From Bilabrum cf. latius (Eukaryota), in assembly GCA_965178125.1 (NCBI GenBank), contig OZ237743.1, positions 992,001-1,056,000 of the forward strand: 64,000 nucleotides of DNA, given 5' to 3'. The notes beneath the pieces were generated by a model. That model was not told the origin of the DNA, did not search any database, and worked only from the letters and a program-made list of their open reading frames with translations. The position numbers and the translations under genes were made by a program. Every line of letters starts with the position of its first letter. Positions within the stretch are counted from its first letter, which is position 1. Positions 1 to 64,000 of this stretch are shown one piece after another.

Positions 1-579
1 TGCAGGGCTCACAGAAGGCAGCATGGTCTCGCACGCGTCGATGATCCTAAGCATGCGAGAAGACAGCACACTCGGCCAAGGCGCGTTCATTTTCGAATAC
101 TACCTTAGTCCAGCCAAAATGCTGCGAGCGGTTGCACCTTTGGCCGCTAGCTCTGGCGCGAAAGGAGTGACCGTGGACTTCGAGGGTTCGTGAATTTGCC
201 GGCTAGTTCTTCCGCTTTCAACGGTAGATAAGGCCAGTGCAAACAGTCTGCGAAGTACAATTATAGTAGATCTCTCAATCTTTGGCCCGTAGCGACGGGA
301 CAGCTCCAAGCATTGGCCACTTAGAGACGATACGGCGCCAAGGCCGGCAAGTGCTGTTGATGTCTCGGCCAAATCGCTCCCAGTAGAATGAACACGGTGC
401 CCCCCTTGCCCCAAGTGCTCGGCCAGGACCGTTAGACTACATATACTTAGATCAAGTGGCAAGCTTTCCGTTGCCCCTGCGTCCTTAAGAGGCACTGACG
501 GAGCAGATCGTCCTTGAGGCTGCTGCGGTGGCGACAATTCCGGCACTGCTTCGCTGCTAAGCGACAAGTTGCAGCCCAT
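1..579 (-). CDS. Hypothetical protein, 3' end outside window; N-terminal MGCxxS acylation-like motif
   Basis: ORF 100..579 starts MGCNLS. Its 'stop' at 100-102 is TAG and the frame stays open to position 1. Upstream in-frame TGA at 607-609. Confidence 0.55.
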
Positions 580-1121
580 GACACCTTGCTAGTTCGGTTT
601 CTTGATTCAGACAAAACTAGTATTTGTCCGACAACTAAGCTACGACTCTCTCGTAGCGTCGTGTTGAATATGGGGTTGATCAAGGCACTTTCGAGCCGGA
701 TTGCGCTACTCAATCCACTCAAGGTACACGTCACTTTATAAATGGAAGCCAGACTGTTGCCGGTCTTCGCGGTTAACTCAACGAATGTGTTTTCTCGAGC
801 AGTGATTGAGAATATCTCTAGCAACTATCTAATAAACAAGGATATACCGCGCATGGCTGCGCGATATCGTTCGGTACCGCGAGGGAACGTGGATCGCGTA
901 CCTGGAGACAATCAAGCGATGCCCTGCAGCAAGACATACAACGGAAAGGGTAGGCGTAGATATCTACTTATTCTTTTATCCCAAGTCAATCCTGTGGTTG
1001 AATGCCCCTTGCGATGCAAGTGAAACTGGCTCTACGTGGCTGACTGTTCGTGGACTTCACAAGCAAAATTGGATTGAGCTACGCCGAGGTCAGTCAAACT
1101 GTACGATGAACGCGTATGCTT

Positions 1122-4100
1122 TTATCCGGTGTCATCCGCGGCATATTCGTCGGCCTTTTGGATCTCATCCGCCTGCTGCTGCAGCTGCTCGGCAGTTTGC
1201 GGCATCGCGATACGAGTGCCGATCACTGCGTTTCCGAAGTGTATAGCTCGCTCCGCTGGCGTCAGATGCATCCAGATGCGATGCTCTCGCTGTAGATTTG
1301 ACTGGCCCACCTGCCAGAGCATTTCGTGTTCCCACTGGCCGCTGGTGGTGCCATGCTTGCCGTCCTGGATTAACAGCGCCAAGCTCGCGGGTTCGAATCC
1401 CAGTGATTCAAACGCGCGAGCCATCCTCCTGTGCCTCACGGCATGCCACAGCCGCAACCCTGTCCCCGCCTGAGGTGCTACCGGCATACCTTGCGCAGGA
1501 TCGAGCGCCCGCGCGACGGCCCTCATTCTCGCCAGCTCTTTCCTCTGCTGCCGCGTGAGACGAGCACGAGCAGCTGAAGGGGTGTCAGGGGAGGCACCGT
1601 TTCGTGCGGCTGGAGACTCACCCTCATTGCTGGCTACCCTTGCTCTCTCCTAGAGGTTCCCCAACCCCCCCGACTCGAAGGAGTCCCACTCGTCACCCTC
1701 AACACCGCCATCCTAGCCGACCCCATCCCCTACCAAGTCCGGGTCCAGCACCCGCACCAGGGGGTCTTCCCCCTATAGCCCGTCACTCTCTTCTGCGATA
1801 CCTAGCTCATAAATCCCGCCGTCCAGCCACGCATCGTACTCGTGCATCCCATCCTCGCGAAGAGGCACGTCTTCAACCGCATTCCCATCCCCGGCCCCAT
1901 CCCACTTGCTCCGGACCCACTTGAGCAGAGGGCCCATCCACCCCGCCGATCCGTCCCCATTGCCACCGCCGCCCTTCGCTGCAGTGCCGTGCATCACACT
2001 CAGCGACCGCAGTATAGCTGCCTTATCCCCCTGCGTCCCGCCCCACGACCCTGAATGAAACGCGGCCCGGCTGGCGTTCACACGCCTGTAGTGCTCGAGC
2101 AGAGCACGCCTGTACCTGTCTGCAATTTCCCGCAGCCGCAGCCTCGCCGCCCTCAAGCCGCCCCCTCCCTTTCCCTCTCCCCCCACCCCTCGCTCAGCCT
2201 CCGAAGCCCAGGGGTCGAGCACCGCCGTTGCCCTCCGCCTGTCCCACATCCCCAGCTCAACCTTCCTGAGCTCAGGGTGCATCTGCAGACCGTCGCTGCC
2301 CACCTGCAGCGGCTTGTCCCACAAGTTGATGCCCCTGCGCTGCAGCTCCATGATGAGGTCGCCTGTGGGCACCACTTCCCTTCCCACCCGGATGGCCTCA
2401 TCGTCTCCCTCTCCATTGGTTCCACTTCCACCGGTGGGCTCCGCACCCGCCACAACGGCGCCATCGGGCGACCCAGCGAGCTTCGCCGCGCCGTCCTCGT
2501 CGTCCTCGTCGTCTTCTGCCTGAAGCACTTCGTCCTCTTGCAGCGATTGGGCTTCCTCCTGCTCCCGTTCCAGCTTGAGTCTCGATGACTTCCCGGGTCT
2601 TGCTCTTGCTGAACCAGCATTGGATGCCCTTGAATCCTCCGTATTGTCGCCCTGCCGCACCACCCTCACAGTCCGTGCATCAGCACCAGTAGAAGACCTA
2701 ACGCTGTGCAGGGGCACCAGCCACGGCTCGACCTCTGCTCGCACCGTCTCTCTGAGGCGAAGGAGCATCTGTGGCACGGTGCAGCGGATGGGGGGCCAAG
2801 GGGTGGTGGTGCCTGCAGTCGCCCCTTCGCGAGGCGATAGTTGTGCCTCGCGACCGGCTGCAAGACCGGTGCTCTCTGGCTTAGTACCCGCGCATGTTTC
2901 CACTGGATCCTCACCGGGGTCCAGCACTGGAGGGGCATGGAGAAATGGCCTCTTCAGTGGAGCCACGGCACCGGAGACCGGCCTGCGAGGCACCCACGGG
3001 GGCAGCGAGGCGACAGCAGCTACTGCCAGGCGAGTGCCGGTCACATGATCCCCGGCCGCTCGATGGAGGGCACCGAGGGCATCTGCCACGCACCTCTTCA
3101 CGGCGGAATTACTTTGCGATCGTGCCGTACTCTTATCATCGTCATCCACATCGCCGTCATCGTACCGGCCGAGCGCTTCGCGATGCGCCTGGCTCTCTTC
3201 GGATGCACTGCTCGAGTCGTTCAGAAGCCCCAAGCCGTCCGCCAGCTCGCAGAGCCCAGAGGCCCACTGTCGCCTGGTTTGCTGCACCAAAGCGAGCGCC
3301 TCCGCGGTGGGCAGCTTGGAGAGAGGCGAGTCTGCACGGGGCATGCCGTGCCCAGGCAGCACGATGGCAGCTCCGCTGGGCAGCGCGCCGGCGTGCGACA
3401 GCACCAACGTGCGCCCGTCGGGGAGGCTGATGTTTCGCGTGAAGGAGTGGAGCGCCTCTCGCAGCGTCACGTTCATCATGAGACCGATGTCGCTGTAGCC
3501 GAGCGTGCCCGCCATCGCGTTCAAGTCACCGGACGGCGGTGTTCCTCCTGCCTCTATGTACCCCGGCAACGACTCGTGCAGGGGTCTCCCAGGGAGCTCG
3601 CCGCGGTCTCCACTACTGCTGTCACCGCCGATGCCGTGTGCTCCCGCGCCCCCCAGTTCGTCTCGTTGCAGCATTGCAGCAGCTGGGTGCACCTGTTTAA
3701 ACCACGCCTGCACCTCCTGCTCCCACCTCCGCCAGTCCTGCCTCCTCTCCGCCTCCTTCTCGTAGCTGGCACCCCGCACGAACTGAGACACCGCAGTAAG
3801 TCGGGCCGTTCTGGCTGCCGCGAGGTCTCTCGATCCCAGCCGACCCAGCCCCTGCACCAGCGCCCTCTCCTTCTCCGCCTCCTCGCCAGACTCGTCCGGT
3901 CCGTTGGGCACGTCTTTGGACAGGACAACCTTCACTCTCACGTCCCCGTCGCGACGGAACGGGTGCCCGTCCGGCCCCCCCTCCCCCTTGAGCACCTCTG
4001 AGTGCCCCGAGAGGACCCCCGCGGGCACCAGCACAGACACCTGGTGGTCACCCTCCACGAACCTTCGGCCGCCGCACACCGGACAGGCGTGCTCATGAGC

Positions 4101-6035
4101 ATGGAACACGTTGCCGAAGCCGCCGCACCGGTGGCAGGTCCCGCTGTACGTCGCCGAAGACCTTGGCGTGTGCTCCACGCTGCTCTCTGACGGGGCATAC
4201 ATCTTGCCGTGCTCTTCCGTCGCCCGGGCCTCGCTTGCTGCCAGCACGCCGTGAGACGCGCCAGTCCCCGCGCACACGGGACACACGTGAGAATGTTCCT
4301 CGGAGGCAGCACCCCGCCCGCCGCAGGCAGGACACCTGTACAGCCTCCCAGGCAGCACGAACGAGAAGTTCCTCGCGGCGAATGCGTCGGCCTCGTTGAG
4401 CACGATCGACACGTCAAACCCCCTCGCGTCGGGCAATTCATCCGGCCCCGCCCCCCCAGGGCGGCCCCTCCGCAGGGTGAACCGAGCAGAGGCCCCACAC
4501 GCCGAGGCCAGGACATCCATGCGGGCGGCTGCATCGCCTTTCGGCCGGGCCTTTGGTGTGGGTCGGGGCTGTTGCTGCTGCTTGTGATCCCGGCCCCTTT
4601 CAAAAGACTCGCCTCTAGGCCCTCCTGCCTCTTCTGCCCCGCCTTGCTGGGCCTGTTTGGGCGTACCAAATCCCGCATAGGTGGGATATGATGCCCAGTC
4701 CTACCACCCGCCCCCATCCGAATCGCCAGACCCATCCCCTGACCCGATAGCACCGGGCCTGTCCCTTGCTGCCCCCGCGCTCGCGCTCACTAGGTCTGGG
4801 ATCTGGCTCCCGCTCGCACCATTCACATGATTACCATTGTCCTGATCTCCATCTTCCTCCAACCAGCCCGGCCTCTCGCCCCCCTCCCCGCCCTCAGCAC
4901 CGCCCTCCCCTTCGCCCAGGTCTGGCCTCCAGTGCCCCGACCTGACCTGCTTGCATGCCTGATCCATATCTCCGTGCCAGGCCTGCTCCCCCACTGCCTG
5001 CCTGCCCAGCATTCCCACGGCCATGGACACCTCTGCATCCTCCAGCTCGTCACCCCTGGAGCAGTGCTTGCCTTCCAGCCTGTGCTGCAGGTGGGTGACC
5101 AGGAGCTCTGCCACCACGCGGCCCCTCCACCCCCCGTCCCACCTGCTGCTCTCGTCGATGCCCTCCTTGCTCCCGTTGTCCACCCATCCGTCGTCTCCTG
5201 GCAGCAAAATGTACCCGCTTCGAGGCAGGCCCTGGGGAGGCCGCTTGAAGCCAGACCGCAGACGGAGAGCAGACCCGATCGGCGCCCTCGCCACCACGTA
5301 CTTGCCCGGGGGAACAACGGCGACTGCTCGCTCTACGAAATCGCTACCCACTTCCATGACCACGAGGGGCTGCTGCGTGGCTGGCTTGGCTCCTGGCAGA
5401 GGGGTCGGGTCTGGTGGCGGCTCCTTCTGTTGCTGCTGCTGTTGCGACGGCGGTGGGGGTGGCTTCTGGCGGTCCCATCGCAGGGCGTGCGAAAGGACTC
5501 TCGCTGGCGGGGGCACCATGCTTGCAAACGATACAGGGTCGATGCAACCCGACGTGGTCCGGTTCGCCACATGTGGCCCTGCTGTGCCGTTCGAACACTC
5601 GGCAAACTGCGCCTGAATACGTGCTGCCTCAAGCGCTGCTGCCGAATGCGGCTCATCGTTGCCGATGTGCTACAAATCATTCACTATGGTGACTTCGGAA
5701 ACGACGCCAGCCTGCTGCTCCAGTGATGCCAACACAACTTGCATCCAGCCATCCCGACCGGCGTCGCTCACGAGGTCTGCTGGAGGCCCAGAGCGGTACA
5801 GCTGTCGAAGGACAGATGCTGCCTAAGAAAGGGCAGATACTCTAGTGCCGGGATTCTACAGTTTGGATGGAGGAATCTGTCGAAGAGCGTGCAGCTGCGG
5901 GCGGCATCGAGGGGGAGCTGGAGGAGCGCCCACTGTCAGATCCAGAGCCACTGCGCTTGGCTCCTCTCCTTCTACGTAGGGTGCCTTCAGACCTACAAAC
6001 AATGAAATAGTACACACAATCCAAGCGACTTTCAT
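1122..6035 (-). CDS. Large DnaJ-like protein (signal peptide, zinc finger, C-terminal domain; no J domain seen), ~1637 aa
   Basis: ORFs 5856..6104, 4701..5570, 1773..4520 and 1122..1526 share one frame, separated only by 7 TAGs (5856, 5823, 5670, 4701, 1773, 1713, 1650); ends TAA at 1122. MKVAWIVCTISLFVGL signal peptide; CPACGGRG, CPVCAGTG, CHRCGGFG, CPVCGGRR; DnaJ C-terminal-like VTLREALHSF and LPGHGMP. Confidence 0.8.
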
Positions 6036-6178
6036 CGCTTCACTCAGTGAATCCGATCGAGCAGAACTTCCAACGCCAATACAGTGCACTGCAGCTGCAC
6101 CCACCCGTCGGCAGCCCGCCTGCTAGCCGCAGGTTCCGGCACAAAGCGGGCTACGGGAACAATACACCCCACCGCCAA

Positions 6179-7721
6179 TCACCCGCTGGGCGTGAACACC
6201 GTGCTCTGCTCCCCCTCGATCACGCTCTGGAGGTCTTTGGCCGTCTTCCCGATGGCCCCTCCCTGCAGCGAACCGAGCACGTCACCCGAGCACTTGCTCA
6301 GGGCCTCACCGATCTCCCCGGTCGTCATAGCCGCCACCTGCAGCGGCTCCCCGGCGCACACCAGCGTCCCAATCCCCACCATGCAGTTCTGGACTCGGAG
6401 CCCAAAGTCTTTCACGGCGGGGTCCTCCGCCGCGCCCTCGCCCGCAGCTGCCGCAGCCTTCTCGAGCCGCTTGGTCGAGCCATCCAGCTCGACCGCCAGC
6501 ATTCCCATCACATCGCCGCCGAGACCCTCCACCCACTCCGGCAGCGCATGCTCGTCCCCGCTGGACCATCGGAAGCCCTGCACGGCCGCGGCAAAGTTCA
6601 CCAGGATGGCCGTGCCAGCCGCACCCGCTGCCGCCTTGCTCTGCTTGAGCAGCGCAGGCACCGCCACCGTGAGCACCTGCTCGGCCCGGGCCCGGGCACC
6701 GGCGTCCTCCCCCACGAGCAGCTGCCTCGAGGCATGGTGGCTAAACACGTTCGTCAAGGCGCGCCCTGCCACGATCCTCAGGCCTGCGCTCGCCTCTTCG
6801 CTCGAGACGGCTCGCACCGCCACCCCCACCACGTCCTCCACCTCCACCTGTCCTCCCGCTGCTGTGGACGCACCGCTCCCTGCCCCGCCAGTGGCCGCTC
6901 CAGACGCGGAGGGCGGCGGGCCCCCCGCGTGCTTGGCCGCCATGGCCGCCCCGGCCGGGTGGGTGAGCGTCTTCCTCACGAGGTCTAGGGCGGGCGCCAG
7001 GGCAGCGATGGGCCACCGGAGGAGCTTGCCGAAGATCACGCGGGAGGCGTCATCCGGAAGCTTGGATGCGTGGTACCTGCTGACGTCATCGAGCACGTCT
7101 GCCGCTGCCTTGATGGTCGCAAGGTCCTTGGCTTCCAGGGCCAGAGAGGGGTCCGATTTTGCGACCACCTCGCTCTTCGCCTTGAGAGCTGCTTGAAGCT
7201 TGGTGAAATCCACCGGGAGCACCTTGAGAGGGGTAGAGCAAGGGAAGCCGGAGAACGTCGCGGCCCTGGGCTTGGGCGGGGGGGTGAGCCGCACCGGACG
7301 CCCAGAAGCCGCCTCGACGGCGGCAATGATTCTACGCTCGTCGGCTCCCTTGATGGCGTCGCCGATCTATCGACCGTCCTTGCACACGAAAAAGCTAGGC
7401 ATGCTCCTTACTCCAAACATCGCTTGCAGATCAGGCGACTGGTCGACGTCAAACTTGAGCCAGAGCAGCCCCGGCCTCGTGTTGTACGAAGCAAGCTCGG
7501 CAAATCGCGGAGCGTATCGTTTGCACGGGCCGCACCAACTGTGTCCAATTGAAGGAGGTATACTAGATCAGAAAGCGCCTCACAAAACCAATACAATAGA
7601 GCATACTGGCGTTGTACACAACGTAGGCTCACGTAGCGAAGGCATCAATCACAGCGACGGCCCCAGGGTTCTATTCAAATACTTCCTTGAATTCGTCAAC
7701 AGATGCGATCATTCGTACCAT
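6179..7721 (-). CDS. Thioredoxin plus PUL-like domain protein (exons 7721-7633, 7538-6179)
   Basis: Splicing GTGAGC..CAG intron 7632-7539 gives VIDAFAT|WCGPCK, then KFDVDQ..FGVRSMPSFFVCKDGR*IG, running into ORF 6179..7294 (LLRWPIAALAPALDLVR, PUL/armadillo-like). TAGs at 7671 and 7367; ends TGA. Confidence 0.8.
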
Positions 7722-7838
7722 GGTAAACGCAAGAAAGTGTCCATTCTTGCGGGCCCGTCATGCGCCGAAAAACGTCCGGAATTGAATTGTTGATGCACTT
7801 GCCTCGAGGAACCAGTCAGACCTGCATATTCGGCCATA

Positions 7839-10133
7839 ATGATGCGACGATTGGCTCGACGAGTAAATGTGTAGGAATTATGGCACAGAAATTTACCTAG
7901 GATAGCTACTGGTCCGACCATGTCTGCTTGTAGCGGTATGCACAGGAGTTTCTCGGCAACCGCCTCCAGCAGCAGCCCAGAGCGTGACTTGACCCGCATC
8001 CGCAATGTTGCCGTCATTGCCCACGTAGATCACGGAAAGACGACTCTGGTCGATAAACTCTTGCAGAGCGCGGGGACTGCTGTTGATATGGACCGTGCTA
8101 TGGACTCGAACGAGATTGAAAGGGAGCGCGGCATCACGGTGTTTAGCAAGGTCTGCGGGCTTGACTGGAGGGCAGCACCGGATGCTGGCGAGGATGGACC
8201 GAAGCTGTCATTCAATCTTGTGGATTCCCCGGGCCACGCAGATTTTGGCGGCGAGGTGGAGCGAATCCAAAGCATGGTAGACGCAGTGATTCTTGTCGTG
8301 TGCGCGAGGGAGGGGCCCATGGCCCAGACGAGGTACGTATTGGAGAAGGCACTCCGGGCCGGGCACAAGCCGATCCTTGTTGTGAACAAGGCGGACCGCC
8401 CGGACGCAAGGAACGAAGAGGTGCCGGACGAGGTCCTTGACCTGATGATGGGACTAGACGCCACGGAGGAGCAGCTCGAGTTCCCGGTGCTGTACGCGTC
8501 TGCCAAGGAGGGCTGGGCCACCGAGGACCCTGCCATGGCCCCTGAGTCCATCGCCAGGGGCATGGAGCCCCTACTAGACGCCATGGTCAAGCACACACCC
8601 CCGCCCCGCGTGGTCCTGAGGGGGGAGGACCTAAACAACACGGACAACCCAGCGGAGGGCATGAACCAGGAGGACCTCAAGGCCAGGGCCGAGGCAGCGG
8701 CCAGCGAGCCCTTCCGCATGCTTGTCACGCAGATCGCCGTGGACCCCTTCGTGGGCAAGCTGGCCCGCGGGCGGGTCACCGCGGGGCGGGTCGCGATGGG
8801 CGACGCTGTGCGGCTGGTGCGCCGCACGGGGGGGGTCAAGGAAGACGATTGCGCGGTCACTAGGGTGCAGTGCCCCAGCGGGCTGGGCGTGGCACCGAGA
8901 GATTACGCCCTGGCCGGCGACGTGGTGGAGCTGGCGGGCGTGTCGCTGGCACGGCCGACCGACACGATCGTGTGCGCGGGCTGGGACGAGCAGGCGGACG
9001 GGCCCCCGCAGCTGCCCGCCACCCCGATCGACCCCCCGGTTCTTAGCATGATGATCGGCGTGAACGACTCCCCGCTGGCAGGGAAGGAGGGCTCTGAGCT
9101 GACGGGCAGCGTGCTGCAGCGCAGGCTTGAAAAGGAGGCCGAGGGCAACGTGAGCATCCAGGTGAGGAAGCCGGGCACGTCTGTTAGCGACAAGAAGGGC
9201 GACAAGGCGGTCGCGGAGGAGGGCGAAGAGACGTCCATGGGAGGGGAGGACGACGAGGAAGCGGGCATGTGGGAGCGCGTGGATGTCGGGCCGGCCGGTG
9301 GGGGCGTGAGGGACGGCATGGAGGTCTTCGGTCGTGGCGAGCTGCAGCTGAGCGTGCTGCTCGAGACCATGCGGAGGGAGGGCTTCGAGATGAGCGTGGC
9401 GCCCCCTCGCGTTGTTCTCCGGAAGCACAGGGAGACCAAGCAGGTGCAGGAACCCTATGAGGAGGTGACGCTGGACGTCAGCGAGGACGTGTCGGGGACG
9501 ATGATTGAGGCCATGCAGCAGAGGAAGGGCGAGCTGCAGGACTTCACCACGGTGGCGGGGGGCGGCTCGGTGGGCAGCGGCAGCGGGGAGGGTGACGGTG
9601 CGAGCGGCAGGGCGCGGCTGGTCTTCCACGTGCCCTCCAGGTCTCTGCTCGGCTTTTAGGCGGAGTTCAGGTCGCTGACGAGGGGTGACGGCGTGCTGAC
9701 CCGCCGGTTTGACCACTTCGGCGACTACCACGCCGAGGCGAGGAGACAGCCCAGAGGAGTGCTGGTGAGCTCCAGCAGCGGCACGACCACCGCGCACGCG
9801 CTCAGCAGCCTAGAGGCGCGGGGGATTCTATTCGTGGGGCCCAGCACGGACGTGTACGAGGGCATGCTGATCGGGGAGTGCGCCAAGCCCTCCGACCTCG
9901 TAGTGAACCCAGTGCGGGCGAAGAAACTGACGAACGTTCGCGCCGCGGGCTCGGATGAGATGGTACGCCTCGCGCCCCCGAGGCAGGTGACCCTCGAGGA
10001 CGCCATCACGTACGTGCGGGACGATGAGCTGGTGGAGCTGACTCCCTCCTCGATCCGCATGAGGAAGAGGGTGCTGAACGCGGACAAGAGGAAGGCGGCG
10101 GCAAGGAGTGGAAGTAAGGGGGGCAGGCAGTGA
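7839..10133 (+). CDS. typA: TypA/BipA translational GTPase, probably mitochondrion-targeted
   Basis: IAHVDHGKTTLVD, ERERGIT, DSPGHADFGGEVER, NKAD, GRGELQL, C-terminal KKLTNVRAAGSDE. ORFs 7920..9659 and 9693..10133 are in frame across TAG 9657. Arg-rich presequence from ATG 7839 contains TAG 7872. Ends TGA. Confidence 0.93.
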
Positions 10134-10157
10134 TGCAGTGCAGTGCAGTGCAGTGCA
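10134..10157. repeat. (TGCAG)n microsatellite just after the typA stop
   Basis: tgcagtgcagtgcagtgcagtgca directly after TGA 10131-10133. Confidence 0.8.
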
Positions 10158-10448
10158 TTGGCATGCAGCACCGATGGACGGATAGCCATGAGTACGACAA
10201 GCGGAGCGCGGTTTATATCGATGGGCGAGCGGGGGCAGCGATGGTTGGGAAGCGGTCAATCCGATTGAGATTGGAATTGGAATTAAAATGAACAGAGACC
10301 AGGAATATTGCATACATTCACTATCGCAGCATGCGCTTTGCATGGAATCCATGGATAGATGCCAGCTGCTTACACGCGGCCCGTATTGATGAGTATAGCA
10401 CGCAGCCTCTGAGCTCTGTCACGAGCAGCCCACTGCTTGCGCCCCGGC

Positions 10449-11525
10449 TCACCGCACCAGCTTCCAGATCTCGCTACCAGCCAGCAGGAACTGCCCCACG
10501 CAGTAGTCGGTGGTGTCCGTGGGCAAGGCGGGCCCGGGGGACCCGGCTGCCTTCTGGCAGTACCCCAGGAACCCGTTCTCCTGCAGGGAGATGGAGGTGA
10601 GCCCGCGCCAGCCGTCCAGGGCCTGCTGCCGGTAGGGGTGCTCGGGCAGGATTCCCTCATTCACGCCGTACGCGAACGCAAAGGTGTTCAGTGCGGATGC
10701 CGTGGTCTCGGGGTTGGGGATCGCGTCGGCGTCGAGGAGGGCAGAGCGCCACATGCCGTCCGTGGTGTTTTGCAGGGGCGCGAGGGCGCTGGCCATCTGC
10801 TTCAGCAAGGTCTCCCACGTCTCCCTCCTGCGATCGCTGCGATCGGGCATGGCCTGCAGGATGCGGCAGGAGGACGCGATGGCCCACCCGTTTCCTCGTC
10901 CCCACATGACAGGCTTTCCGTTGGGCTCCTTCTTGCCGATGTATGTGTCGTCGCGGTAGAACAGGGAAAGGTCGCTGTCCCAGAGGTGGTACTGGCCGTA
11001 TGCGGTAGAGTTGAAGTTGGCCATGAGCTGGCTGTAGTAGGATTCGTTGCCTGAGACTAGGGCGGCCCTGGCATAAGTGGGCGCACCCATGAAGAAAGCA
11101 TCGATCCAGCTCCAGTAGTTGCCTTCAGTCTAGGCACCCAGCACGGAGAGTGTGTTCTCGATCTGGTCCTTCGTGTGACCTCCCAAATTGTAGCGATACA
11201 GATCAAGGTACGTTGCGCCGCACAGCTGATTGTTCGCGTTAGACTGGCCGCCGTGATCGTGGCTGCAGATCTGGTACTTGTTCTGGGTCGCCCATTCCAG
11301 AAGGTACGCCTGCACGCTCTCGTTCCTGGTCACCTCCCAGCGAGCAAACTCTCCAGCAATGTACGTGCCTCGAGTCCAGCCGCACTGCCAGTCCGTTGTT
11401 TGGCTCTTGAAGTAGTCGTCAGCCTTTGCCATCGAGGCAATCACATCCGCTGGCACCGGATCCTTGTAGCCCTGTGCAGCAAAAGCGAGCGTCAGAGTGG
11501 CAACAATGTACATAGTTGACTTCAT
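10449..11525 (-). CDS. Secreted glycoside hydrolase, GH105/GH88-type (unsaturated uronyl hydrolase)
   Basis: Signal peptide MKSTMYIVATLTLAFAAQG; WTRGTY; YWSWIDAFFMGAP just after TAG 11130; WGRGNGW; LQNTTDGMW; ETTASA; YCVGQFLLAGSE. Intronless; ends TGA. Confidence 0.85.
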
Positions 11526-11694
11526 GGCGCAGCTCGGCCTCGTATGAAGCAGAAATCTGGCTATCGGCTCAACTGCAACTGGTCGACGCGCTGCAATTGA
11601 AACGTGTGTTTTCCAATCTGACAATCGAATCCGATTTTGATGCATGCCAGAGCGCGGCCAGACTACCTCCATAAGAATAGGCACAGCACGCAGC

Positions 11695-15497: not shown

Positions 15498-15676
15498 GAT
15501 GGATTCTTGGCTGTACTTATTATGCAATCCACGAACTGCGTAAGCAAAAAGCTTGTCGTTTCGCCGTGTCTGGAACGGAAACGAGACCGGTAGCACTGCG
15601 GAACCACAACCGAGCGGCGCCGCGCCCAACGGATGGTTGGAATCGTTGAGATAGTATTGCTTCTGAGCCCAAGACC

Positions 15677-20805: not shown

Positions 20806-20820
20806 TAACAAATGAGGTCT

Positions 20821-50952: not shown

Positions 50953-52884
50953 ATGGACGCATCAATCACCCAAACATAGAAGCGAAAGGGGAAGGGGCCG
51001 GGCTTGGGCGACTCCGATGCATCGTTTTTGCCTGGGGGACCGAGACGACTGGTTGCTGCCGTCCGAAAGGAGCAGGAACGCGAAGCCAAGAAGGCTGCGA
51101 AGCAAGTACGCGAACAGAGGCGAGCTCAGCGCATGAAAGCAAAGCAGCTAGGGGCGGAGAAGGCAGCAGCGGATTCGTTAGCAAAAAGGACATCAGTTGC
51201 TGCAGAGGCAGCCAGACTGACTGGTGCAAGCCTATTTGCACGTGATTCAGCTGCATCTCAGACCCTTGACGTAATCACTAGGCCGGATTCAAGCTATTTA
51301 AAGGAGGAAGAGCAGACGGCTGAATCGTAGGAGCAGCCTTTGGCTGCATCAGCACTGTCGAGCTCCCAAGAGCTTCCTGAGAAAGCGTCAGCCTCAGCCG
51401 AAACGAAGGCTTCGGAGCCGTCATCTCGTGAAGAGCGGGTGAAATTAGCGAGGGCAGCGCTTGATGCAGGTTGGCAAGCCATGAAGCTGTGGCAGACGAA
51501 AAAAACTAGCTCCGAGGCATCCAGCGGCGCCGGTGCTGCCGACCTGAAAGAGGCCTACGTGCAGTATTCGTCAAGCTGCAAGTCAGCTGGGGAGTTGCTT
51601 AAAAATGCAGACGCTGCCCAATCTGACCGAGACGAGTGGCGTGGCATCCGCATGGCCGCGCTCATCGGCAAGGGAGAAGCAGCCGTCGGCGGGAACCGCC
51701 TTGAGCTCGCGCAGACTGCGTACAGCCAGGCCATGGCAGACGCCCGCGCACTTCGAAACAAGGGTGCCCTGCTGCGAGCATTGCGTGGTTTTGCAGCCGT
51801 GGCGCAGCGCCGAGGCGATTTGGAGAACGCGCGAGAGGCCTTGGCTCTGCTCAGGCAGATGCTGCCGTCTGCCGAAAAAAAGGGCACTGGGAAAATGGGC
51901 ACTGCGGCTGGCAGAGCTGATCCTGCTACTACTGCTGCTTCTGGCTCTACTTCTGGCGAGGAACAGCCCGACTAGGACACGGAGGCGGGCAAGGCAAAGG
52001 GAAAGGGGGAGGAGGGTGCTGCTGCTGCAGACCCCACCTCCTCCTCCTCCTCCTCCACTATCTCCTCCTCGTCCCCAGGACAAGCACACGATGCAGATAA
52101 CAAGGCGGGCTCATCTCCAGCTGCCGCTCTAAACTCGCTGCAGTAGGCCAGGAACGCATGCCCGCCCGAGGATCTCGCCGCGGGCCAGGCCGTGGTCAGG
52201 CAGCTTCTCGAGGGATCCGTTTCCGCTGGGGGGGTGGGGGAACAGATGAAGGGGTTCACGCAGCTGTCCTCTCTGCTTGACAGAGCACTGCAAGGCGATG
52301 CATCAAGCCGTCGGCGCGCTGTGCTGGGCGAGGAGCCGCGTCTGAAGCTCGGTGTGCTGCACGCGCTGGCACTGTGTTCCTCGGCTGAAACCCAGACGGT
52401 GGGGTTCGGGACCACCCCTACGGCTGGAGAACAACCGGCGGTGGGGCTGGCCAGGAGGGTGGTTGCGGCGGCGAGGGGGGCGGGGCTTGTGGGGCCGGGG
52501 GTGCCGGCCGCGGCGTCTGGCGCTGGTGCGGGCGAGTCTGCTGGAGTGGACGAGGGCAAGGGCAAAGGTAAGGGCAAGGGGGCATCGAACCCGGCACTTG
52601 CAGGCGGCACCGCGCAATTGGCAGCGGAGCTTATCGAGGACAAGGATGCCCTCGGCTGCACCCCTCTGTACCTGTCCATGGCACGAGGCAAGCGAGCCTT
52701 CGCTGAGGCTTTGCTTCGGCTGGGCGCGTCGATCGAGGGGGCGGCTGTGCCCAAGGGGGCGGCGACTGCCCCGAGTAGCGGTGGATCTGGGGGTGAATTG
52801 AAGCTGCCGCCCATGGATGCTGGCGTGGTGGCCGCTGTGAAGGCCTGGCAAAAGGGTGGCATGGACGGGCCGCTAAGACTATGA
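50953..52884 (+). CDS. TPR-like plus ankyrin-repeat protein
   Basis: ALIGKGEAAV..AQTAYSQAM (TPR-like); DKDALGCTPLYLSMARGKRAFAEALLRLGASIE (ankyrin). Three ORFs in one frame, 4 TAGs; ends TGA. Confidence 0.7.
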
Positions 52885-53087: not shown

Positions 53088-56069
53088 ATGTCTTCAAAAC
53101 AGCTCTAGATACTGCACTTTAATGATGTGTACAATCTTCCTGATTCGGAGCACGAGCCAGTCGGCAGTGTGGCACGATTTGCGTCGCTCTTGAATCAGCT
53201 TCGTAGGGCAAGTGGACCCGTCCCAACGATTACTCTGTTTAGCGGAGATTGCATGTTTCCATCTCTATTGTCCACCGAGGTACGGAAACTGGTTACCGTT
53301 TTTTCATACCCTATCCGATACAATCATTTGTGTTGGCCTCTTGGCGAGTAAACTACCGCAGACTCTGGGACACCACATGGCCCCTGTAATGGCTGGACTT
53401 GAGGTTGATTGCGCTGTTTGCGGCAATCATGGTAAGTTTGATAGTCTCATTACATTTTGTAGCCCGTTGTATGGTTGATGGCGTTTCGAGCCAGGTACAT
53501 CGATAGCTTGCTGCTGCTACCCGAGATTTCGGACAACGCAGAGTTTGACGCCGGAGTAGAGGCTTTCGAAGACGTTGTGGAGCATGGTGGATTCCCTTGG
53601 GTTCTTTCCAACGTCTTTGACGCCCATACTGGTGCGACTTTTGCGGGATGCAAGGAATTCGTCGTTCTCGAAAAGGATCGCGTTCTCGGGGACGGCACCA
53701 CGGACACCATACGCGTTGGGCTCATCGGGCTCGCCGAGAAAGGCTGGTTCGAGCTCCTTGGCTACGTATCGATCGAAGACGTATCCGTGAAAGATTTCGT
53801 GGAGGTTGCAAGAACCCTCGGCGCGACACTTCGAGACGAGCACAAGTGTGATGTGGTGATCGCGCTCACCCACATGCTCACCGAGCCGAACGATCTCAGG
53901 CTAGCCAGGGAATGCCCGGAAATCGACATGGTGTTAGGCGGACACGACCATAACTCGGAGGACCGAGCGAGGGGGCGTCCTCTGTGGGTGCAGCGGCAGA
54001 GGCCGTTCGACGACGAGTACCGAAAGGAAATGGCCGAAAGGGCTGGCAATGCTGCTGCTGCCGACTCGGAGTCGACATCAGAGGGAGTCTATCCTGGTGT
54101 ACCCCCATGGGTGAGGGCCTGCTGCTTCGGTGGGGCCACCACTCGTCACATCGCGGGCCGCGGCAACGAGCCAGAGGTGGTGCTTGCGGCTGCCGTGTGT
54201 GGGGATGAAAGCGACGCTGCCGGTGCTGGTGCTACTGGTGATGATGATGGTGGGGTTGCTGTGAAAGCAGACGAGCTAGGTGGTCGGTTCATTTAGTCGG
54301 ATTGGGACTTCAAGGGGCTGACTAAGGTGGACGTTTTGGTGGAAGAGGTTCCAGCGGGCAGTGCCAGGGTCAGGGGTGCCAGTGCCGGGGACGGCGAAGG
54401 CCGTGACGCAGGCACAGCCGGTGCAGCTGCCAGTGGTGGGGACACGAAATGCACTCGTCACACCGCAATCACGATCCGCACGGAGCATTACGAGGTGCAC
54501 TCCGGCGTGCCGATGGACGAATCCCTTTCCGCACTGACGTCACACTTCATGGACGACCTGCACAAGCGACTCAGCGCGGTGGTGGGCGAGACCGCGGTCC
54601 CCCTCGAGACCCGGGCCTTCTACCTGAGGCCCATGGAGACTCCCACTGGCAACTGGGTGGCGGATCGTATGCGTGAGGCTGTGCACGCCGACTGCGCCGT
54701 CATGATCGCGGGTGCTCTCAGGGGCACCGCCCCCCTGGAGCCGGGACCCCTCCGCCTGGAGGACGTCATCAACCTGCACCCCGATAACGACGGCGTCGTG
54801 AAGATCAGGGTGTCGGGCAAGGTGCTCTTGGCCGCGCTGGAGAACGGTGTCAGGTACTGGCCCGGGCCCGCCGGGAGATTTCCTTGCGTGAGCGGGATCC
54901 GGTTCGCCTTTGACGGGTCCAAACCGGAGCTAGAAAGAGTGGAAAGCGAGTCTGTGGAAGTCAATGGGAAACCGCTCGAGCTGGATGGGAGCTACACGGT
55001 TGCAACCAAGCCATACGTTGCGGAGGGCAACGACGGCTACGTGTGCTTTGAGGGCGCAGACGTTCTGATCGACGAGGAGCACGCCCTGCCCGTACAGCAG
55101 ATCCTCCGAAACCACCTCCGAGCACTGGCCGCGCTCAACGGGCTCGCCCACTCGAGGCAGCTGCACCGCAGCACGCTTCGGAGGATCCGGAGACAGAAAG
55201 AGGAGGCCATGCGGCTGGCCACAGAGGCGAGGGCATGTCAAGTGGCGGCGCGGGCACGGGCCAGTGCCAGTGCCAGTGCCAGTGCCAGATCCGGTGTGAC
55301 GACTGAGGGAGGCTCTGCGGGCGCGGCGGGTGATGTCAGGGAATAGGGAAGTCCGTCTGCGTCTGGTGCTGGGATTGGAGCCGGGGCTGGCGGGGCTGGC
55401 GCTGACGAGGTGCCCCCCATGTCAGCGCTAGTGCGCGAGGCCACGCTGCAGATCGAGTTGGAGATGCAGCAGCACACGGAGGTCGCGGCCAGGCGGAGGA
55501 AGGAGGTGGCCGAGGCAGGCAATGCGTACGATGCCCCGTTTGGGGTGGGGAAGGGGTACGGTGCGGGTGCAGTGCATGGTGGTGCAGGTAATCGTGCCTC
55601 GGGTATGGCCGGGGCGGCAGCTGGGGAGCGGGACGATCACCATCATCACGCGGAGCACGGTGTGGTGCATCGCATTGCAGCGCAAGAGGACCCCAGTCCC
55701 GAGTCTTTATCTCCTGCCCCCGCTGCTGCTGGTTCAGGCGACAGCAGCACGGATGCGGCTCTCAAAGAGTCCGCCGTCGATCCCGCGATCCACGGAAAGC
55801 TCCTCGGTATCCTGGGCCGGATCCGAGCTGGCAAGCGGCTTGGCCACGAGAAGGCTCACGAGGCGCATGCTGCATCTGGCTCCAAGCACGAGGAAACGGA
55901 AGCGAAGGCCGTACGGGGCAGCCGTGGCGGGTCATCTGCTATGGGTAGCGCATCGGGTGGCTTGCATGCCGGTGCGCCGCTGTTTCAGGTGCACCCGGTG
56001 GTGGAGGGTCGCATCGTCATTGCAGGTGGCATGGATCAGTGGGAGGAGCAGAAGGTGAAGTGCACGTGA
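53088..56069 (+). CDS. 5'-nucleotidase/apyrase-family metallophosphoesterase (introns 53280-53361, 53432-53541)
   Basis: L*ILHFNDVY, FSGDCMFPS, GNH|EFD after splicing, ALTHM, LGGHDH, ETPTGNWVAD, GRFPCVSG, GNDGY. TAGs at 53106, 54294, 55344; ends TGA. Confidence 0.9.
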
Positions 56070-56318: not shown

Positions 56319-58955
56319 ATGTCTACTCCCTGCCGCGTTATTGCATGCAGCCTATGGAAGGGCTCAGAGGACGAGCCGGAGGACCTGGTATCAGCTATCC
56401 CTGTTTCTGTGCAGCATGCTATGACAGGGTTTTTCGACCAGCCATTGGTAGTTATTCAAGTGCAAGGTCCTGCACGGAGTGGTAAGAGCACCTTCATGCG
56501 GCTTATCGGGGGATGGCTAGCTCGTTGCCCGGGGTTGACCAGTGCGGATTGCGTAGAGGTCTGGGACAAAATGGTCGGGGCTTTCTCAGTAAATGCAATT
56601 CCATGCGAAGGAGGCCAGCACTGGCACCCAAAAGAAGAGGTATCGGAGACAGTGTCGGGCACCAGGGTGCTGAATGCGTTCGGCGTGTCCCACGAGGGCG
56701 AGCCGTGCACCAAGGGTGCCGACGGGTGCTTCCTCGCGATGCCTGCTGGCACTTTTGGCAGGCGCAAGCCGTTCGTTGTGCTACTCATTGACTGTGAAGG
56801 TACCGGTGACCAGGATGACGAGTATGACAGCAAGCTCATGCTGCCAGGGCTCGTCTTCAGCGGAGGCGGAGCGGCGATCGTGCGGACGGCACAAAAAGGA
56901 CTTGTGCATGCATCGCTGGACCAGCTGAGCCACGTCGTGGAGGCCGTCAAGCTGTACCAGAGCGCATTCAACGCAAGTGGTGGCGAGGAAACTGAGGCAG
57001 ATCCTGGTGCTGACCCGTAGGCAGCGCGTGGGGGTGCCGCTGAGCAGGAGGACCCCCGGGCCGCTGGTCAACAGGCACCCAAACTGGGCGCAGCCGTGCT
57101 TCTATGCAACGACTACAGCCTGGCGATGGCACCGGGCCAGTCCATCGAGGGAATGGAGTCGGATGTATTTGACGTTGAGTACCCTCGTTCTGGCAAGAAG
57201 CTATCTCGGAAGCAGTCAAGGGCCAATGAGAAGAGGGAGCTGCTGCAGAGCGCGTTCCGCACGCTGCACCGGTGCACAACAGAGCCGCCTGGGGATGGGA
57301 GGTAGCGTCCGTGCAACTGCGATGCCATGATGTCGGATCTAAAAGCGCTCGCAAGGCGTGTACTCCGGCCGATCCTGCAGGACGAGACGCCCCGCTGCGT
57401 GTTCGGGCATTCCGGCCTGCCGCTCACAGTGGGCACTCTCTTCAATCTGCTGCCGTCAGTGGTTGAAGCTGCTTCGGCATCTGACCTGCGCGTTCCCTCG
57501 ATGCTAGAAGGGGCGAAAGCTCGTGGAATCCAGCTCGTGGCAAGCAAGTCAAAGGCGGCAGCCAGCGCTGCTTTGCTCGCTGCTCGGAGCCTCTGCGATG
57601 TTGACAGCGCGTGGCGCATCACTCGAGACGCTGTTCCGCTGTGCATTGAAGCAGCGAGATCTGCAATTGACCGAGTTGTGCACGATACGCTGAGAACCGT
57701 GCCAATCTGCAGGGGTAGTGATGGTGTAGAAAAAACCAAAAGGGAGGCACATGAGTCACTGGTCGAGATCAACGCAATCCTCATGAGGCACCTCGAACGT
57801 GTAGCTAAACACCACGAGGAGGCTGGCGCAGCACTGGTCCTGCAGGCTGCGAGCAACCTCCCAATTCCTGGTGCTGATGCTACGGAGCGGAGCAAACAAG
57901 CCCTGTAGCAATAGACTGACGCGCTGCCCGACGTGCTGTCGTCCATGACAGACGACGAGCTCGCGGCCTCCGTCGAGGTATTCAAAGGCATGACGGATTA
58001 GGCAGCGGCGGCGCTCAGGAGCAGTACAACCGATGGCGAGGAGGGTCCTTTGCATGCTATGTACAATAAAGTGCACGGTGACGTGGCGAGGCAAGCCGAT
58101 GCTGCCATTGCGCGCGCCACGTCGGATATTGGGCACACATTGACGCGGGATGCAGCTCAGGAATTTGCGGCAACGTTGCGGAGCGGTGTGTCTGGGGAAT
58201 CGCCATCTGGAGATGAACGCTGCGATGGGAATCCTGACTAGAACCCAGCTGCTGCGGGGCCCAGCGATCCTGCAGATGTGTTGGTGCCACATCTCGAGCA
58301 ACTGGTCATGTGCCACCCGGCCGGGCCCATAACGCAGCAGGGGCTGTTGGAGGTCGTGGGTCTGGTTCCAGTGGCAAGAAGCGACCAAGCAGATGAATCG
58401 ACACCCGATGGGGAGTAGTTGATTGGTCAAGTGCGAACGTTGCTGGAGCATCGAGCCATGCGACTTCTGCAAGAGCAGAAATCCGTGCACATGCGAGCCT
58501 ACAGGCTGCATGCCAGGCTTGCCGATGAAACTACATAGCGACAGAGGGCCAAAGAGATGAGAAAACAGCGTGCAGCAGCAGAAGCGAAATTCCGGGCCGA
58601 GGCAAGGGCTAGAGAGGCAAGCGAGGAGAAAGCCAGATTGATGCAGGAGCAGCTTTCCAAGCTTCAGAATGCCGCAAATAGGCGAGCTGCGCTGGATGAG
58701 CTTCACAGGCTGCGGGGGATCCATGCCGCTGTCAAGAAGCCCGAAGGATTGGTTAAATTACTATTTCCAGGTAGTGACTTTGCATGGCTACGTGCACAGG
58801 GGTGTGTCCGAGCTATAGATGGCGGGATTGCCTTCGTCCGCGCCCAGCCCGATGGCGAGGTACTAGAGGCCAAAGGAGATGCAGAGAAGGTAGGCGGTGG
58901 AAAGGGCAAATGTGTAGCTGTGTCCACAGCATCTCGGGGGTGGGTATACTTCTGA
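56319..58955 (+). CDS. Guanylate-binding protein/atlastin-like large GTPase
   Basis: GPARSGKST (G1), PCTKG (G2), LIDCEG (G3), LLCNDYSL (G4-like), helical C-terminus. Five ORFs in one frame, 8 TAGs; ends TGA. Confidence 0.8.
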
Positions 58956-59707: not shown

Positions 59708-60190
59708 ACTGGGCTTCACCCCGAACGACTGGTTCTTCACCGGTCCACCTGAATGCGGTATTCATCTGACACTACGAATGTACACACCACTTTCCCCATG
59801 CACCCGACTGGCCTCGTCGCCACATGGCTTCCTGTTCCTGTTTCCCGCCCTAGGGACCGTGTGCTTTGCTCCCAGCATCGCCACCTTGGCCCTATCCTTT
59901 CAGCTTGCACGCGCCGGTCCTGGCCGACCTGCCGTGCGCCCCATCTGTCCACCCACCTGTTGGCCTTCTGCGTGCTGCTGGCCATGCAGTCCGCTGCCAC
60001 CCGCGTCTCCCTCGTGCATTGCAACTGGAGCCCCCATTCCTCCCGTTGTGTTCTCCCTGTTGACACCGCACTGTCGTCGCCTGTGCCGGTGTCCCCCTCT
60101 TCTTCTCCACCTCCTGTCCTCCCACCTCGTCTTCCGTCTCACCTCTGCTCCCCGTTGCTTCAATCCTGATGTCCGAGTACATATAACAAG
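59708..60190 (+). repeat. Dispersed pyrimidine-rich repeat, probably mobile-element derived
   Basis: Homologous in inverted orientation to 29350..29678; sits between homologous segments of the F-box-like pseudogene. Confidence 0.75.
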
Positions 60191-60786: not shown

Positions 60787-61162
60787 CTCCGCACACTGGT
60801 GCTACCCGCCTCGCGCACATGGAGAGACGCCCAGGCCCAGGCTCATCTGCTGTCCTTATGCCCTCGGTTGATCGCTCTGAGAGCAGTGAGGCTGCCGTTC
60901 AGGGCGGTGCGACTCCCATTCGACTTAGAGCAGAGAGGAGAGCTATGGTACTGGAAGAACAACCCCGTGGCGCGCAAGGGGCGGTACAGACCGCGTTGGT
61001 GGGATGCCTCCGGATACATGAAGGGACAGGCAGTTAACCAGGTCATTGAAGCTGCCTCCCGCTGGGTATGCACGGTGCTGGACAGCTGCCCAGAGCTCCG
61101 CTGCCTTAGCCTGCCAGGCATGGCACCGGAGGGCGCGGTTGGTGTGCTGCATGGCGTGCTGA
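60787..61162 (+). repeat. Near-identical duplicate of 63625..64000
   Basis: ctccgcacactggtgctacccgcc...ggcgtgctga occurs at both positions, offset 2838 bp, with few substitutions. Confidence 0.92.
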
Positions 61163-62100: not shown

Positions 62101-62475
62101 GCTGCCTTCTCCTTGACTATGCTAGCCTGTGGCGACGTTCAGGTAACGTCTACTCTCTGGTGGGCTAGGAGTATGAAGACAAGGACAACAACAGCATCAT
62201 CTCCACTGGCAGCCCGCCGGCTTGTCTGGCGTGAGTGCCTTGGCTTGGGCAATTTCGAACGACAAACTGTGTCGAGGCTGTGGTGCCGTCCTAAGTAGAG
62301 CCAATGAGCTATGTCGTAGTTGCTTAACTCCGGGGGCAGTCAAGTTGAAGTCGCACGTGCCACAAGGGGGTTGCATCCGAGGTGGTCAAAAAGGTCAAAC
62401 TTTTTTGAAGATGAAGCGATACAATTATTGCCAGCAACTCATATTTCGTGGATTTTGAGCAGGCAACATATCATA

Positions 62476-64000
62476 ATGCCATCTCGTACAGGAATTGCTG
62501 CATTATTGGTCACAGCTTGCGAGCCGTTTCTAGATCAGCGCTCCATTAAGGCTATCAGATGCACCTGCCGGCGATTGCAAAGTGGCACCTCTAGACGTCG
62601 AACAAGCAGTGACAACGCTGTAAAAGAGACAGCACTGAACGTTAGTTCTGCATCTGGAGCATGGAAAGTTGCGTACGGTCGGGTATGTAGATCAGGTCAG
62701 ACAACGTTGGTGCCTGCCAGCCCCGTGGTGAGAGCGCATTGTTGGCATTCATTAGCTGAGTCTAGACAGCAGCATAGTGCTAGTGATAACCCTTAGCATA
62801 GAGATATCAGGGTTGGTCCCGAAGGATCGCTGATCAAGTTCGGTAGCTTCTCAGAGTGCAGTCCAAGCTGCCTGTCAACCTTCCCGCTTGAGGCTGCCAA
62901 TATTAGCGGATCAATCGACCAATACAGTGAAGTTGCATGCGTTAGCACAGCAATCTCACTACGAGCGCTCGGAATATCACATCTACATGCCTGCACAACT
63001 GCCAAAAGTCGTGCTCTTCGACGCATTCTCCAATCTGCAAGGAGTATTCGCTGCCTGTCTCTGGGTTACGGCAGGGTTCAGTCAAATGCAACCCGAGACT
63101 TTGTAATTCCCGATAAAATTGTGTTGGAGAAGAGCGTATGGAGAGCTCGGGCGGTGCATCGGTGGGCTTCGACTCTGGCAGATGCCCAGCACTCGCTTGC
63201 AGTCCGTGCTTTAGCCACGCCGCCAGCATGCGACCGGCATTCGATTGGGACGCATTTAGTCAATGTACAAGGGTGTAAGACAGCTCTAAAAGTCGGGAAT
63301 AGCGATGAAGCTGCCGAGAGAGGAGCTTCAGGCGGTTCAGGACGCGGTAGCACTAGCTGTCCGGGCGGCGCTCACCGACCGGAGAGCAGAAAAGCCCCGA
63401 TACACAGCAAAGCATATGATGGAACGTGGTCAAGCGGTTCATCATTACGGCACATTGCGGTCCAGAAGGTACCCAGAGGCTTGTTTAGAGCACCAGCACT
63501 TGGTGCCCTCCTCGGAGCCATGCCGCAGCACATGCAGCAATGGACATGTAGTACTACTAGTAGTAGTGCAAATGCGACTGCCGATTTGATCCGTGCCAAT
63601 CCCAAGCTTTACCTTTGTTGGGATCTCCGCACACTGGTGCTACCCGCCTCGCGCACATGGAGAGACGCCCAGGCCCAGGCTCGTCTGCTGTCCTTGTGCC
63701 CTCGGTTGATCGCTCTGAGAGCAGTGAGGCTGCCGTTCAGGGCGGTGCGACTCCCATTCGACTTAGAGCAGAGAGGAGAGCTATGGTACTGGAAGAATAA
63801 CCCCGTGGCGCGCAAGGGGCGGTATAGACCGCGTAAGTGGAGAGACTCCGGATACATGAAGGGACAGGCACTTAGACAGGTCATTGAAGCTGCCTCCCGC
63901 TGGGTATGCACGGTGCTGGACAGCTGCCCAGAGCTCCGCTGCCTTAGCCTGCCAGGCATGGCACCGGAGGGCGCGGCTGGTGTGCTGCTGGGCGTGCTGA
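62476..64000 (+). CDS. F-box-like/LRR-like protein, 3' end outside window
   Basis: ALLVTACEPFLDQRSIKAIRCTCRRL (F-box-like); IRCLSLG, LRHIAV, LRTLVLP, CPELRCLSLPG. Frame +1 is open from 62476 to the window end with a single TAG at 62794. Confidence 0.7.

Follow-up and report, generated by a model that had tools for sequence, protein, structure and literature searches.

We analyzed a 64,000-nucleotide stretch of contig OZ237743.1 (assembly GCA_965178125.1, deposited as Bilabrum cf. latius; positions 992,001 to 1,056,000 of the forward strand), hereafter the window, in which protein-coding genes are interrupted by in-frame TAG triplets. In the nuclear code of the host, UAG very probably has a sense meaning, which leaves termination to UAA and, mostly, UGA. 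The observation itself, namely in-frame TAG without in-frame TAA or TGA, is confirmed, and its reading as a change of the code is supported by four independent lines of evidence: homology that runs through TAG in four proteins, spliced contigs, TAG positions shared with relatives, and 16 gene ends none of which is TAG. Glutamine (Gln) is the most likely meaning of UAG, an assignment in which we place moderate confidence. An earlier note on this DNA, made from the sequence alone, had proposed that UAG is sense and that UAA and UGA remain stops; codon counts, homologs, RNA contigs, relatives and gene ends all bear this proposal out. The window has a G+C content of 56-65% and encodes eukaryotic proteins on both strands, with few, short, spliceosomal GT..AG introns; the data are best explained if it is nuclear DNA from a flagellated eukaryote with a GC-rich genome and few introns.

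Under the standard code, no stop-to-stop open reading frame (ORF) in the window is longer than 976 amino acids (aa). When TAG is treated as sense, the longest ORFs become 2,692, 1,720, 1,616, 1,575 and 1,467 aa, and the number of residues in ORFs of at least 300 aa doubles, from 14,574 to 29,181. Freeing TAA instead changes almost nothing, the longest ORF staying at 976 aa, and freeing TGA, which is the most frequent stop triplet of this GC-rich DNA, lengthens many frames, the longest of which reaches only 1,027 aa; TAA is the rarest of the three triplets (365 occurrences on both strands). The 21 stop-to-stop ORF segments used as gene models contain 117 in-frame TAG codons, with a maximum of 17 per gene. 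The count of more than 100 given in the earlier note stands, whereas its maximum of about 16 per gene does not, and its statement that every gene model carries TAG fails for the first exon of the NME7 gene, which has none. A conservative coding set of 16 segments, each starting at its first ATG or at an exon edge and totalling 15,784 codons, contained 92 in-frame TAG, no TAA and no TGA, so that a check for internal TAA and TGA proposed in that note turned up none; the other two frames of the same DNA hold 566 TGA, 219 TAG and 78 TAA. Thus, TAG accounts for about 0.6% of the codons and interrupts essentially every long gene. Because TAA and TGA together occur off-frame at about 2% per codon, a frame of 2,691 codons that is free of both, like the frames of 1,500-2,700 codons in general, is not due to chance.

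The 16 gene ends comprise 13 TGA and three TAA, the latter at 1122, 20805 and 40231, exactly where TAA ends had been claimed; none is TAG. One gene ends with a doubled TAA TAA and another with TGA TGA. The 3' end of a 1,466-codon gene of no known family (21025-25425, minus strand, 17 in-frame TAG), in which TAG is the last sense codon directly before TGA, reads ...CGT TAG TGA TGC TAG (window 21025-21030, minus strand), with a second TAG two codons past TGA; this is the sole place where one might argue that TAG acts as a stop.

For domain searches, the window was translated with TAG as Q. The Pfam matches include TypA (GTP_EFTU, EFG_C and BipA_C), GH88, NDK/NME7, thioredoxin plus PUL, an endonuclease/exonuclease/phosphatase (EEP) domain, the 5'-nucleotidase C domain, WW/ankyrin and WD40/EF-hand, and in four of the proteins solved structures align across TAG. 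The TypA/BipA translational GTPase (7839-10133, plus strand; TAG at 7872-7874 and 9657-9659, stop TGA) aligns with solved BipA chains of the E. coli type in three stretches, the last of which (214.9 bits) starts upstream of TAG 9657 and reaches the C-terminus. GH88 structures in the PDB align over residues 89-417, across TAG 11130, with a GH88-family unsaturated glucuronyl hydrolase (10449-11525, minus strand; Pfam E-value 4e-53, TAG at 11130-11132, stop TGA). NME7 chains align with the two-exon gene for an NME7/CFAP67-type nucleoside diphosphate kinase, a flagellar enzyme with an N-terminal PH/DM10 part (15677-17076, plus strand; GT..AG intron 16359-16537), across TAG 16978-16980 and into the NGVHCTD motif, which begins eight codons further on. 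Thioredoxins align across TAG 7367-7369 in the last exon of a thioredoxin and PUL gene (6179-7537, minus strand; stop TGA). Among the conserved elements that had been placed downstream of TAG codons, the TypA C-terminus, NGVHCTD and HFNDVY of the 5'-nucleotidase are indeed found there; WCGPC is not, the TAG of the thioredoxin gene lying downstream of this motif in the exon read. Searches of the PDB with exon 1 of the 5'-nucleotidase and with the EEP domain gave no significant match, and the ankyrin region matched designed DARPins at a randomised position.

The best database match to the TypA protein is a fragment of 557 aa from another data set (P0001) that is 88% identical and ends ...SRSLLGF, exactly at TAG 9657. 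For the 1,466-codon gene, four fragments from relatives (P0124-P0127) are 80-94% identical; P0125, P0126 and P0127 end exactly at TAG codons 672, 367 and 1145, respectively, and one of the four ends beside TAG 1320, within a Q run where the alignment is ambiguous. Since the fragments of relatives break at TAGs of the window, these TAGs are conserved features of the lineage rather than errors of one assembly, and the five fragments are products of a standard-code gene caller applied to an organism with the same code. A scan of JGI metagenomes detected no relative of the 1,466-codon gene and, for GH88, only distant, presumably bacterial homologs (22-37% identity); a scan of prokaryote genome bins detected no close relative.

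Transcript evidence comes from assembled (Logan) contigs of four public runs, which were compared with positions 6000-21000 of the window. The contigs of run X1 are contiguous over introns and spacers, with no difference from the window and no exon-exon joints, and X1 is therefore DNA. Runs X5, X6 and X7 belong to two other studies under two other organism labels, and none is recorded as RNA; their contigs match gene-sized units, and we conclude that they contain cDNA because these contigs carry exon-exon joints, the sole ground for considering them RNA. The joint 14250/14403 skips 152 nucleotides (nt) bounded by CT..AC, that is, GT..AG on the minus strand, and the joint 16358/16538 skips 179 nt with GT..AG ends, both in X5, X6 and X7 (three of the four runs); the joint 7538/7633 skips 94 nt in X6 and X7 (two of four). 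The introns removed in RNA contain none of the five TAG codons that were checked. Both TypA TAGs are covered in X5 and X7, the GH88 TAG in X5 and X6, the TAG of the thioredoxin-PUL gene in X5, X6 and X7, and the NME7 TAG in X5, without a letter difference in any covering contig. The contigs depart from the window at a single letter in the 15 kb (X6, C>T at 16262), and an X7 contig matches it fully over 7828-10300, including TypA. Accordingly, the dominant mRNA keeps TAG at the five codons checked, and the splicing, editing or assembly errors that the earlier note had named as possible refutations were not found at these codons. As an observation in its own right, the five genes with the deepest contigs (thioredoxin-PUL, TypA, GH88, NMNAT-like and NME7; X5 depth about 30-80) contain 6 TAG in 2,829 codons (0.21%), the other 11 segments 86 in 12,955 (0.66%), and the ankyrin-WW gene, with a depth of about 0.4-5.6, 12 in 949 (1.26%), contig depth being a poor measure of expression.

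Few TAGs of the window fall at conserved alignment columns, and column profiles alone do not decide which residue UAG specifies; sequence context does better. Q is the only residue that is significantly enriched beside TAG (15 of 181 neighbors against a background of 4.0%, p = 0.007; the rate for Q itself is 7.2%). Two CAG or CAA codons flank TAG in 4 of 92 cases, compared with rates of 3.0% for Q, 0.96% for L and 0.61% for all other residues, which gives Q a log-likelihood edge of 2.6 over L, 3.7 over E, 4.2 over K and 6.5 over S. The runs ATG TAG TAG CAG CAG CAT, CAC TAG CAG CAG CGA TAG and GAG TAG CAA CAG resemble CAG runs with C-to-T changes. In the TypA column with TAG (607), the two nearest homologs (P0002, Symbiodinium bipA; eukaryotic) both have Q. 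Many TAGs are located within acidic or Gly-rich disordered stretches, and the local hydropathy around TAG is nearest to that of K, E and Q (z from -0.3 to -1.2, compared with -1.3 to -1.95 for L), a signal too weak to name a residue. An RNI-like leucine-rich-repeat (LRR) protein (26984-29263, plus strand; nine in-frame TAG, stop TGA) offers two usable repeat columns only, its representative search having yielded 150 LRR proteins of generic type (23-43% identity) but none closely related. Across 1,052 aligned repeats from these 150 proteins, column 223 holds K 261, Q 231, T 164, R 94, E 91, I 44 and L 36, and column 211 holds A 244, K 200 and many others; in the protein itself, the repeats show E, K, E, Q, K and Q at position 223 (read by eye from the translation). 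The thioredoxin column holds K, K, K, L and Q, and the GH88 column, with T, T, V, V, V and V, is variable and uninformative.

Several results weigh against Gln. Over 119 homologs, TypA column 607 holds H 61, L 43, Q 10, R 2, I 1, Y 1 and F 1, and the NME7 column holds R, I, I, I and I. A Codetta-like profile product over the three deep columns yields Q 0.37, L 0.31, H 0.12 and K 0.09, and the addition of two 5-sequence columns changes it to L 0.49, Q 0.19 and K 0.19; the full neighbor-likelihood ranking leaves E, K, Q and L undistinguished. Finally, one relative fragment reads through two TAGs of the window with S and L, at a place where 5 of 11 neighboring residues differ as well. The excess of L over Q in TypA, the first rank of L in the five-column product, the I in four of five NME7 homologs and the L in the relative are, at the same time, what speaks for the strongest rival, under which UAG is sense and specifies leucine (Leu), as in several mitochondrial codes and in the rhizarian exLh, which sets the precedent (Panek et al. 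2017, PMC5304391). We nevertheless find this rival unlikely. TAG occurs within CAG/CAA runs at the rate of Q and not of L, with a likelihood ratio of about 14, and the residue enriched beside TAG is Q rather than L; the nearest TypA homologs have Q; L is present in only 36 of the 1,052 repeats at LRR column 223, where the own repeats of the protein lack it; no hyperconserved Leu column is hit by TAG; the hydropathy around TAG is closer to that of K, E and Q than to that of L; and many TAGs have the acidic or Gly-rich disordered surroundings noted above. Serine, the meaning of UAG in Scotinosphaera, is disfavored: S is depleted beside TAG (11 of 181 against a background of 8.7%; the rate for S itself is 11.7%), its log-likelihood relative to Q is -5.1 with one neighbor on each side, -9.8 with two and -6.5 in the flanking test, and it is found in 0 of 119 sequences at the TypA column and in 27 of 1,052 repeats at LRR column 223. 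Gln is retained as the probable assignment.

The sense reading of UAG itself also has points that weigh against it. The lack of in-frame TAA and TGA is partly circular, given that the ORF borders were drawn at these triplets, borders to which ORF length and the transcript contigs nonetheless lend support; the terminator sample, 16 genes, is small; and the TAG-TGA end of the 1,466-codon gene is a pattern also expected from residual stop function of TAG. Logan contigs are not raw reads, so that rare variants are dropped and a minor edited form is possible; automated guess labels give X5 as 'RNA? (probably DNA)' and X6 and X7 as 'RNA?'; and the RNA check covers 5 of the 117 TAG codons. In the 64-kb window, ARAGORN identified no tRNA genes, no Rfam families were detected, and no eRF1 gene is present.

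The small terminator sample and the TAG-TGA end are compatible with an ambiguous code, under which UAG is mostly read through and serves as a context-dependent stop in some genes, as in Condylostoma, karyorelicts and Amoebophrya sp. Kv, and the paucity of TAG in the five deep-contig genes could mean that TAG is decoded inefficiently. Such a code appears quite improbable to us: TAG is needed as a terminator in none of the 16 genes, and several genes have a TAG in the last 33-39 codons ahead of the true stop, one of them as the very last codon in a gene, with no depletion toward the 3' end. In addition, contigs extend about 70-170 nt past the TypA and GH88 stops, a weak indication only, as contigs cannot fix the end of an RNA. 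Coordinated reassignment of UAA and UAG (UAR=Gln) is by far the commonest variant, with at least 13 independent coordinated changes (PMC5304391), and the rarity of TAA in the window could make UAA a sense codon that is merely rare in a GC-rich genome. We give this possibility very little credence, because, at the CAA:CAG ratio of 146:489, the 92 TAG should be accompanied by about 27 in-frame TAA in the 15,784 codons and there are none, three of the 16 genes end at TAA, one of them at TAA TAA, and freeing TAA does not extend the longest ORFs. That the TAGs are untranslated, being located in pseudogenes, assembly errors, unrecognised introns or sites of RNA editing, is a negligible prospect, for which we found no supporting evidence within the small share of TAGs covered by RNA contigs, and which is contradicted by the presence of only one of the three stop triplets in frame, the same TAG positions in relatives from other data sets, the identity of the X1 DNA contigs and the X5-X7 RNA contigs at the TAGs, and the removal of real introns none of which holds a checked TAG.

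We therefore return to UAG as a sense codon, most likely for Gln. A dedicated tRNA with the anticodon CUA, most likely charged with Gln, would decode UAG, CUA being unique among anticodons in recognizing UAG without also reading UAA (PMC5304391), and eRF1 would have lost or weakened recognition of UAG while keeping that of UAA and UGA.

In NCBI translation table 15, TAG is Gln, and TAA and TGA are stops; this table was defined for Blepharisma and is now mainly used for recoded phages. If UAG is Gln, the code of the host would equal table 15, which would then translate this contig; membership hangs on the residue. The kind of phenomenon is already documented, and the host is most likely a further UAG-only case. 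In the fornicate Iotanema spirale, UAG is Gln, and genes stop at UAA and UGA (Panek et al. 2017, PMC5304391): as here, UAG changed its meaning alone while UAA continues to terminate, Gln is also the most probable reading in the host, and the expected mechanism, a tRNA-CUA and an altered eRF1, would be the same. Unlike Iotanema, known from a transcriptome only, the host is represented by a genomic contig that is GC-rich and dominated by TGA stops. The rhizarian exLh (Sainouroidea) shares the UAG-only reassignment, and in-frame UAG is rarer in its highly expressed genes, such as those for ribosomal proteins, as it is here in the five genes with the deepest contigs; in exLh, however, UAG occupies conserved Leu positions and UAA ends 56 of 71 genes (PMC5304391), whereas here the context points to Gln and TGA ends 13 of 16. 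Protocruzia tuzeti and several phyllopharyngean ciliates reassigned UAG alone to Gln or Leu, and Scotinosphaera uses it for Ser (all cited in McGowan et al. 2024, PMC11687900); in all of these, as in the host, UAG is uncoupled from UAA in the nuclear genome, Scotinosphaera differing in the residue, which is disfavored here. Amoebophrya sp. ex Karlodinium veneficum is an alveolate, the broad group to which the TypA protein of the window also hints, and keeps in-frame stops in mRNA (PMC12005148, PMC6394959); there, all three stops are sense and 58% of the in-frame stops are UAA (PMC12005148), whereas here TAG alone is in frame and TAA never is. Amoeboaphelidium (UAR=Gln) differs in that TAA is not sense in the host. 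The part of the literature that was searched contained no GC-rich, TGA-terminating eukaryote with a UAG-only reassignment, which does not show that such a case is unpublished.

The only hint of lineage is the TypA protein, which points toward alveolates: in a FastTree phylogeny of 120 sequences, it is the sister of Symbiodinium sp. KB8 bipA (support 0.93), followed outward by one unnamed sequence (1.0) and two plant proteins (0.97), in a tree of a single organelle-type gene that samples only five eukaryotes. The top NME7 match, chain 8g2z, which we take to be from Tetrahymena (the search output names no organisms), scores 160 bits compared with 119 bits for Chlamydomonas FAP67, which argues weakly against a green alga. 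The 64-kb window contains no rRNA or standard phylogenetic marker. Its traits are a G+C content of 56-65%, TGA-dominated stops, spliceosomal introns, and flagellar and bacterial-type TypA genes. Ciliates, whose genomes are AT-rich, do not match these traits. Fornicates live anaerobically and have reduced mitochondria, whereas the window carries a TypA of the alphaproteobacterial type with an N-terminal extension. As sources of the DNA, exLh misfits because its stops are mostly UAA (PMC5304391), and Amoebophrya sp. Kv because all three stops are sense and UAA dominates (PMC12005148), both by comparison of traits and not by phylogenetic placement.

Relative to bacterial BipA, the TypA protein has about 50 extra N-terminal residues, with one TAG among them, which could be a targeting peptide, and low-complexity insertions at several places (one, rich in Gly and Ser, immediately precedes TAG 9657) that are also present in the 88% identical relative. 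The GH88 gene is expressed and lies between eukaryotic genes with an in-frame TAG of its own; its closest solved relatives bear generic depositor names of the kind usual for bacterial entries. A gene transfer from bacteria, if there was one, either took place before the code change or has adapted to it.

The remaining genes are arranged as follows. A large protein with weak DnaJ CXXCXGXG/DnaJ_C matches is encoded at 1122-6035 (minus strand; seven in-frame TAG, stop TAA 1122-1124). Next to the thioredoxin-PUL exon, the 94-nt intron at 7539-7632 is located upstream. The last exon of a cytidylyltransferase-like (NMNAT-like) gene with a long low-complexity tail occupies 11695-14250 (minus strand; TAG 11758-11760), bounded by the intron 14251-14402. 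The ankyrin and WW protein (17956-20805, plus strand; 12 in-frame TAG) is the one that ends with TAA TAA. A coiled-coil protein (29931-34673, minus strand; stop TGA) has 10 in-frame TAG, including those in TAG TAG CAG CAG, and a protein with a C-terminal EEP domain (35360-39970, plus strand; stop TGA) has six. A gene read in two overlapping frames of 413 and 492 codons (40231-42118, minus strand) contains 13 in-frame TAG and ends at TAA 40231-40233. A 2,644-codon WD40 and EF-hand protein (42903-50837, plus strand; 11 in-frame TAG, stop TGA) has three distant homologs, the best with 27% identity over 17% of the query and none informative at the TAG columns; by language-model features, its central propeller, a TAG-free stretch, resembles WDR49/WDR64 clusters with a score of 0.96, a recognition below the usual threshold that is a lead only and gave no lineage. 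Further genes on the plus strand are a 643-codon gene of no known family (50953-52884; four in-frame TAG, ending TGA TGA), the 5'-nucleotidase with its long second exon (53088-56069; TAG 53106-53108 in exon 1, three codons before the H of HFNDVY, stop TGA), for which an intron near 53280-53470 is indicated by a frame change only, and an 878-codon P-loop protein without a Pfam family (56319-58955; eight in-frame TAG, stop TGA).

The palindrome TCCGGA(A/T)TCCGGA is found at 20822-20841, 29684-29696 and 29905-29924, with 10 strand-wise matches against 0.12 expected; at two of the three places, it lies directly 3' of gene ends (TAA 20805 of the ankyrin-WW gene and TGA 29931 of the coiled-coil gene), in spacers between convergent genes, and it may serve several genes as a 3'-end or termination signal, or represent a small repeat. 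Three sets of longer repeats were detected: a 377-bp pair (60787-61162 and 63625-64000, 96% identical) that two ORFs close to the right end, members of an unknown gene family, have in common; a 158-bp pair (26614-26771 and 29934-30090, 93%) flanking the LRR gene; and an inverted set (29348-29677 and 59708-60188, 81-94% identity). None of the repeats within the window sets TAG against another codon.

UAA and UAG nearly always change meaning together, and the lineages in which they are uncoupled are natural experiments on third-base discrimination by eRF1 and on the fixation of suppressor tRNAs. Most known cases come from transcriptomes or single-cell data, whereas here a long genomic contig is available together with matching RNA and at least one related species that shares TAG positions, so that the tRNA, the eRF1 and the age of the change could be readable from public data. 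Standard gene callers (table 1 or 11) cut the proteins of the host at each TAG, as exemplified by P0001 and P0124-P0127, and the proteome is accordingly misannotated wherever these tables are used. We tentatively raise the possibility that a UAG-only nuclear code, probably UAG=Gln, arose independently in a GC-rich lineage with little sampling, possibly of myzozoan alveolates, an origin that would not have been described before; the code would be common to at least two species about 12% apart in a conserved protein. If true, UAG would have been captured in a GC-pressured, UGA-terminating genome, the opposite of the AT-rich setting of most stop reassignments, in a lineage for which genome and transcriptome data already exist.

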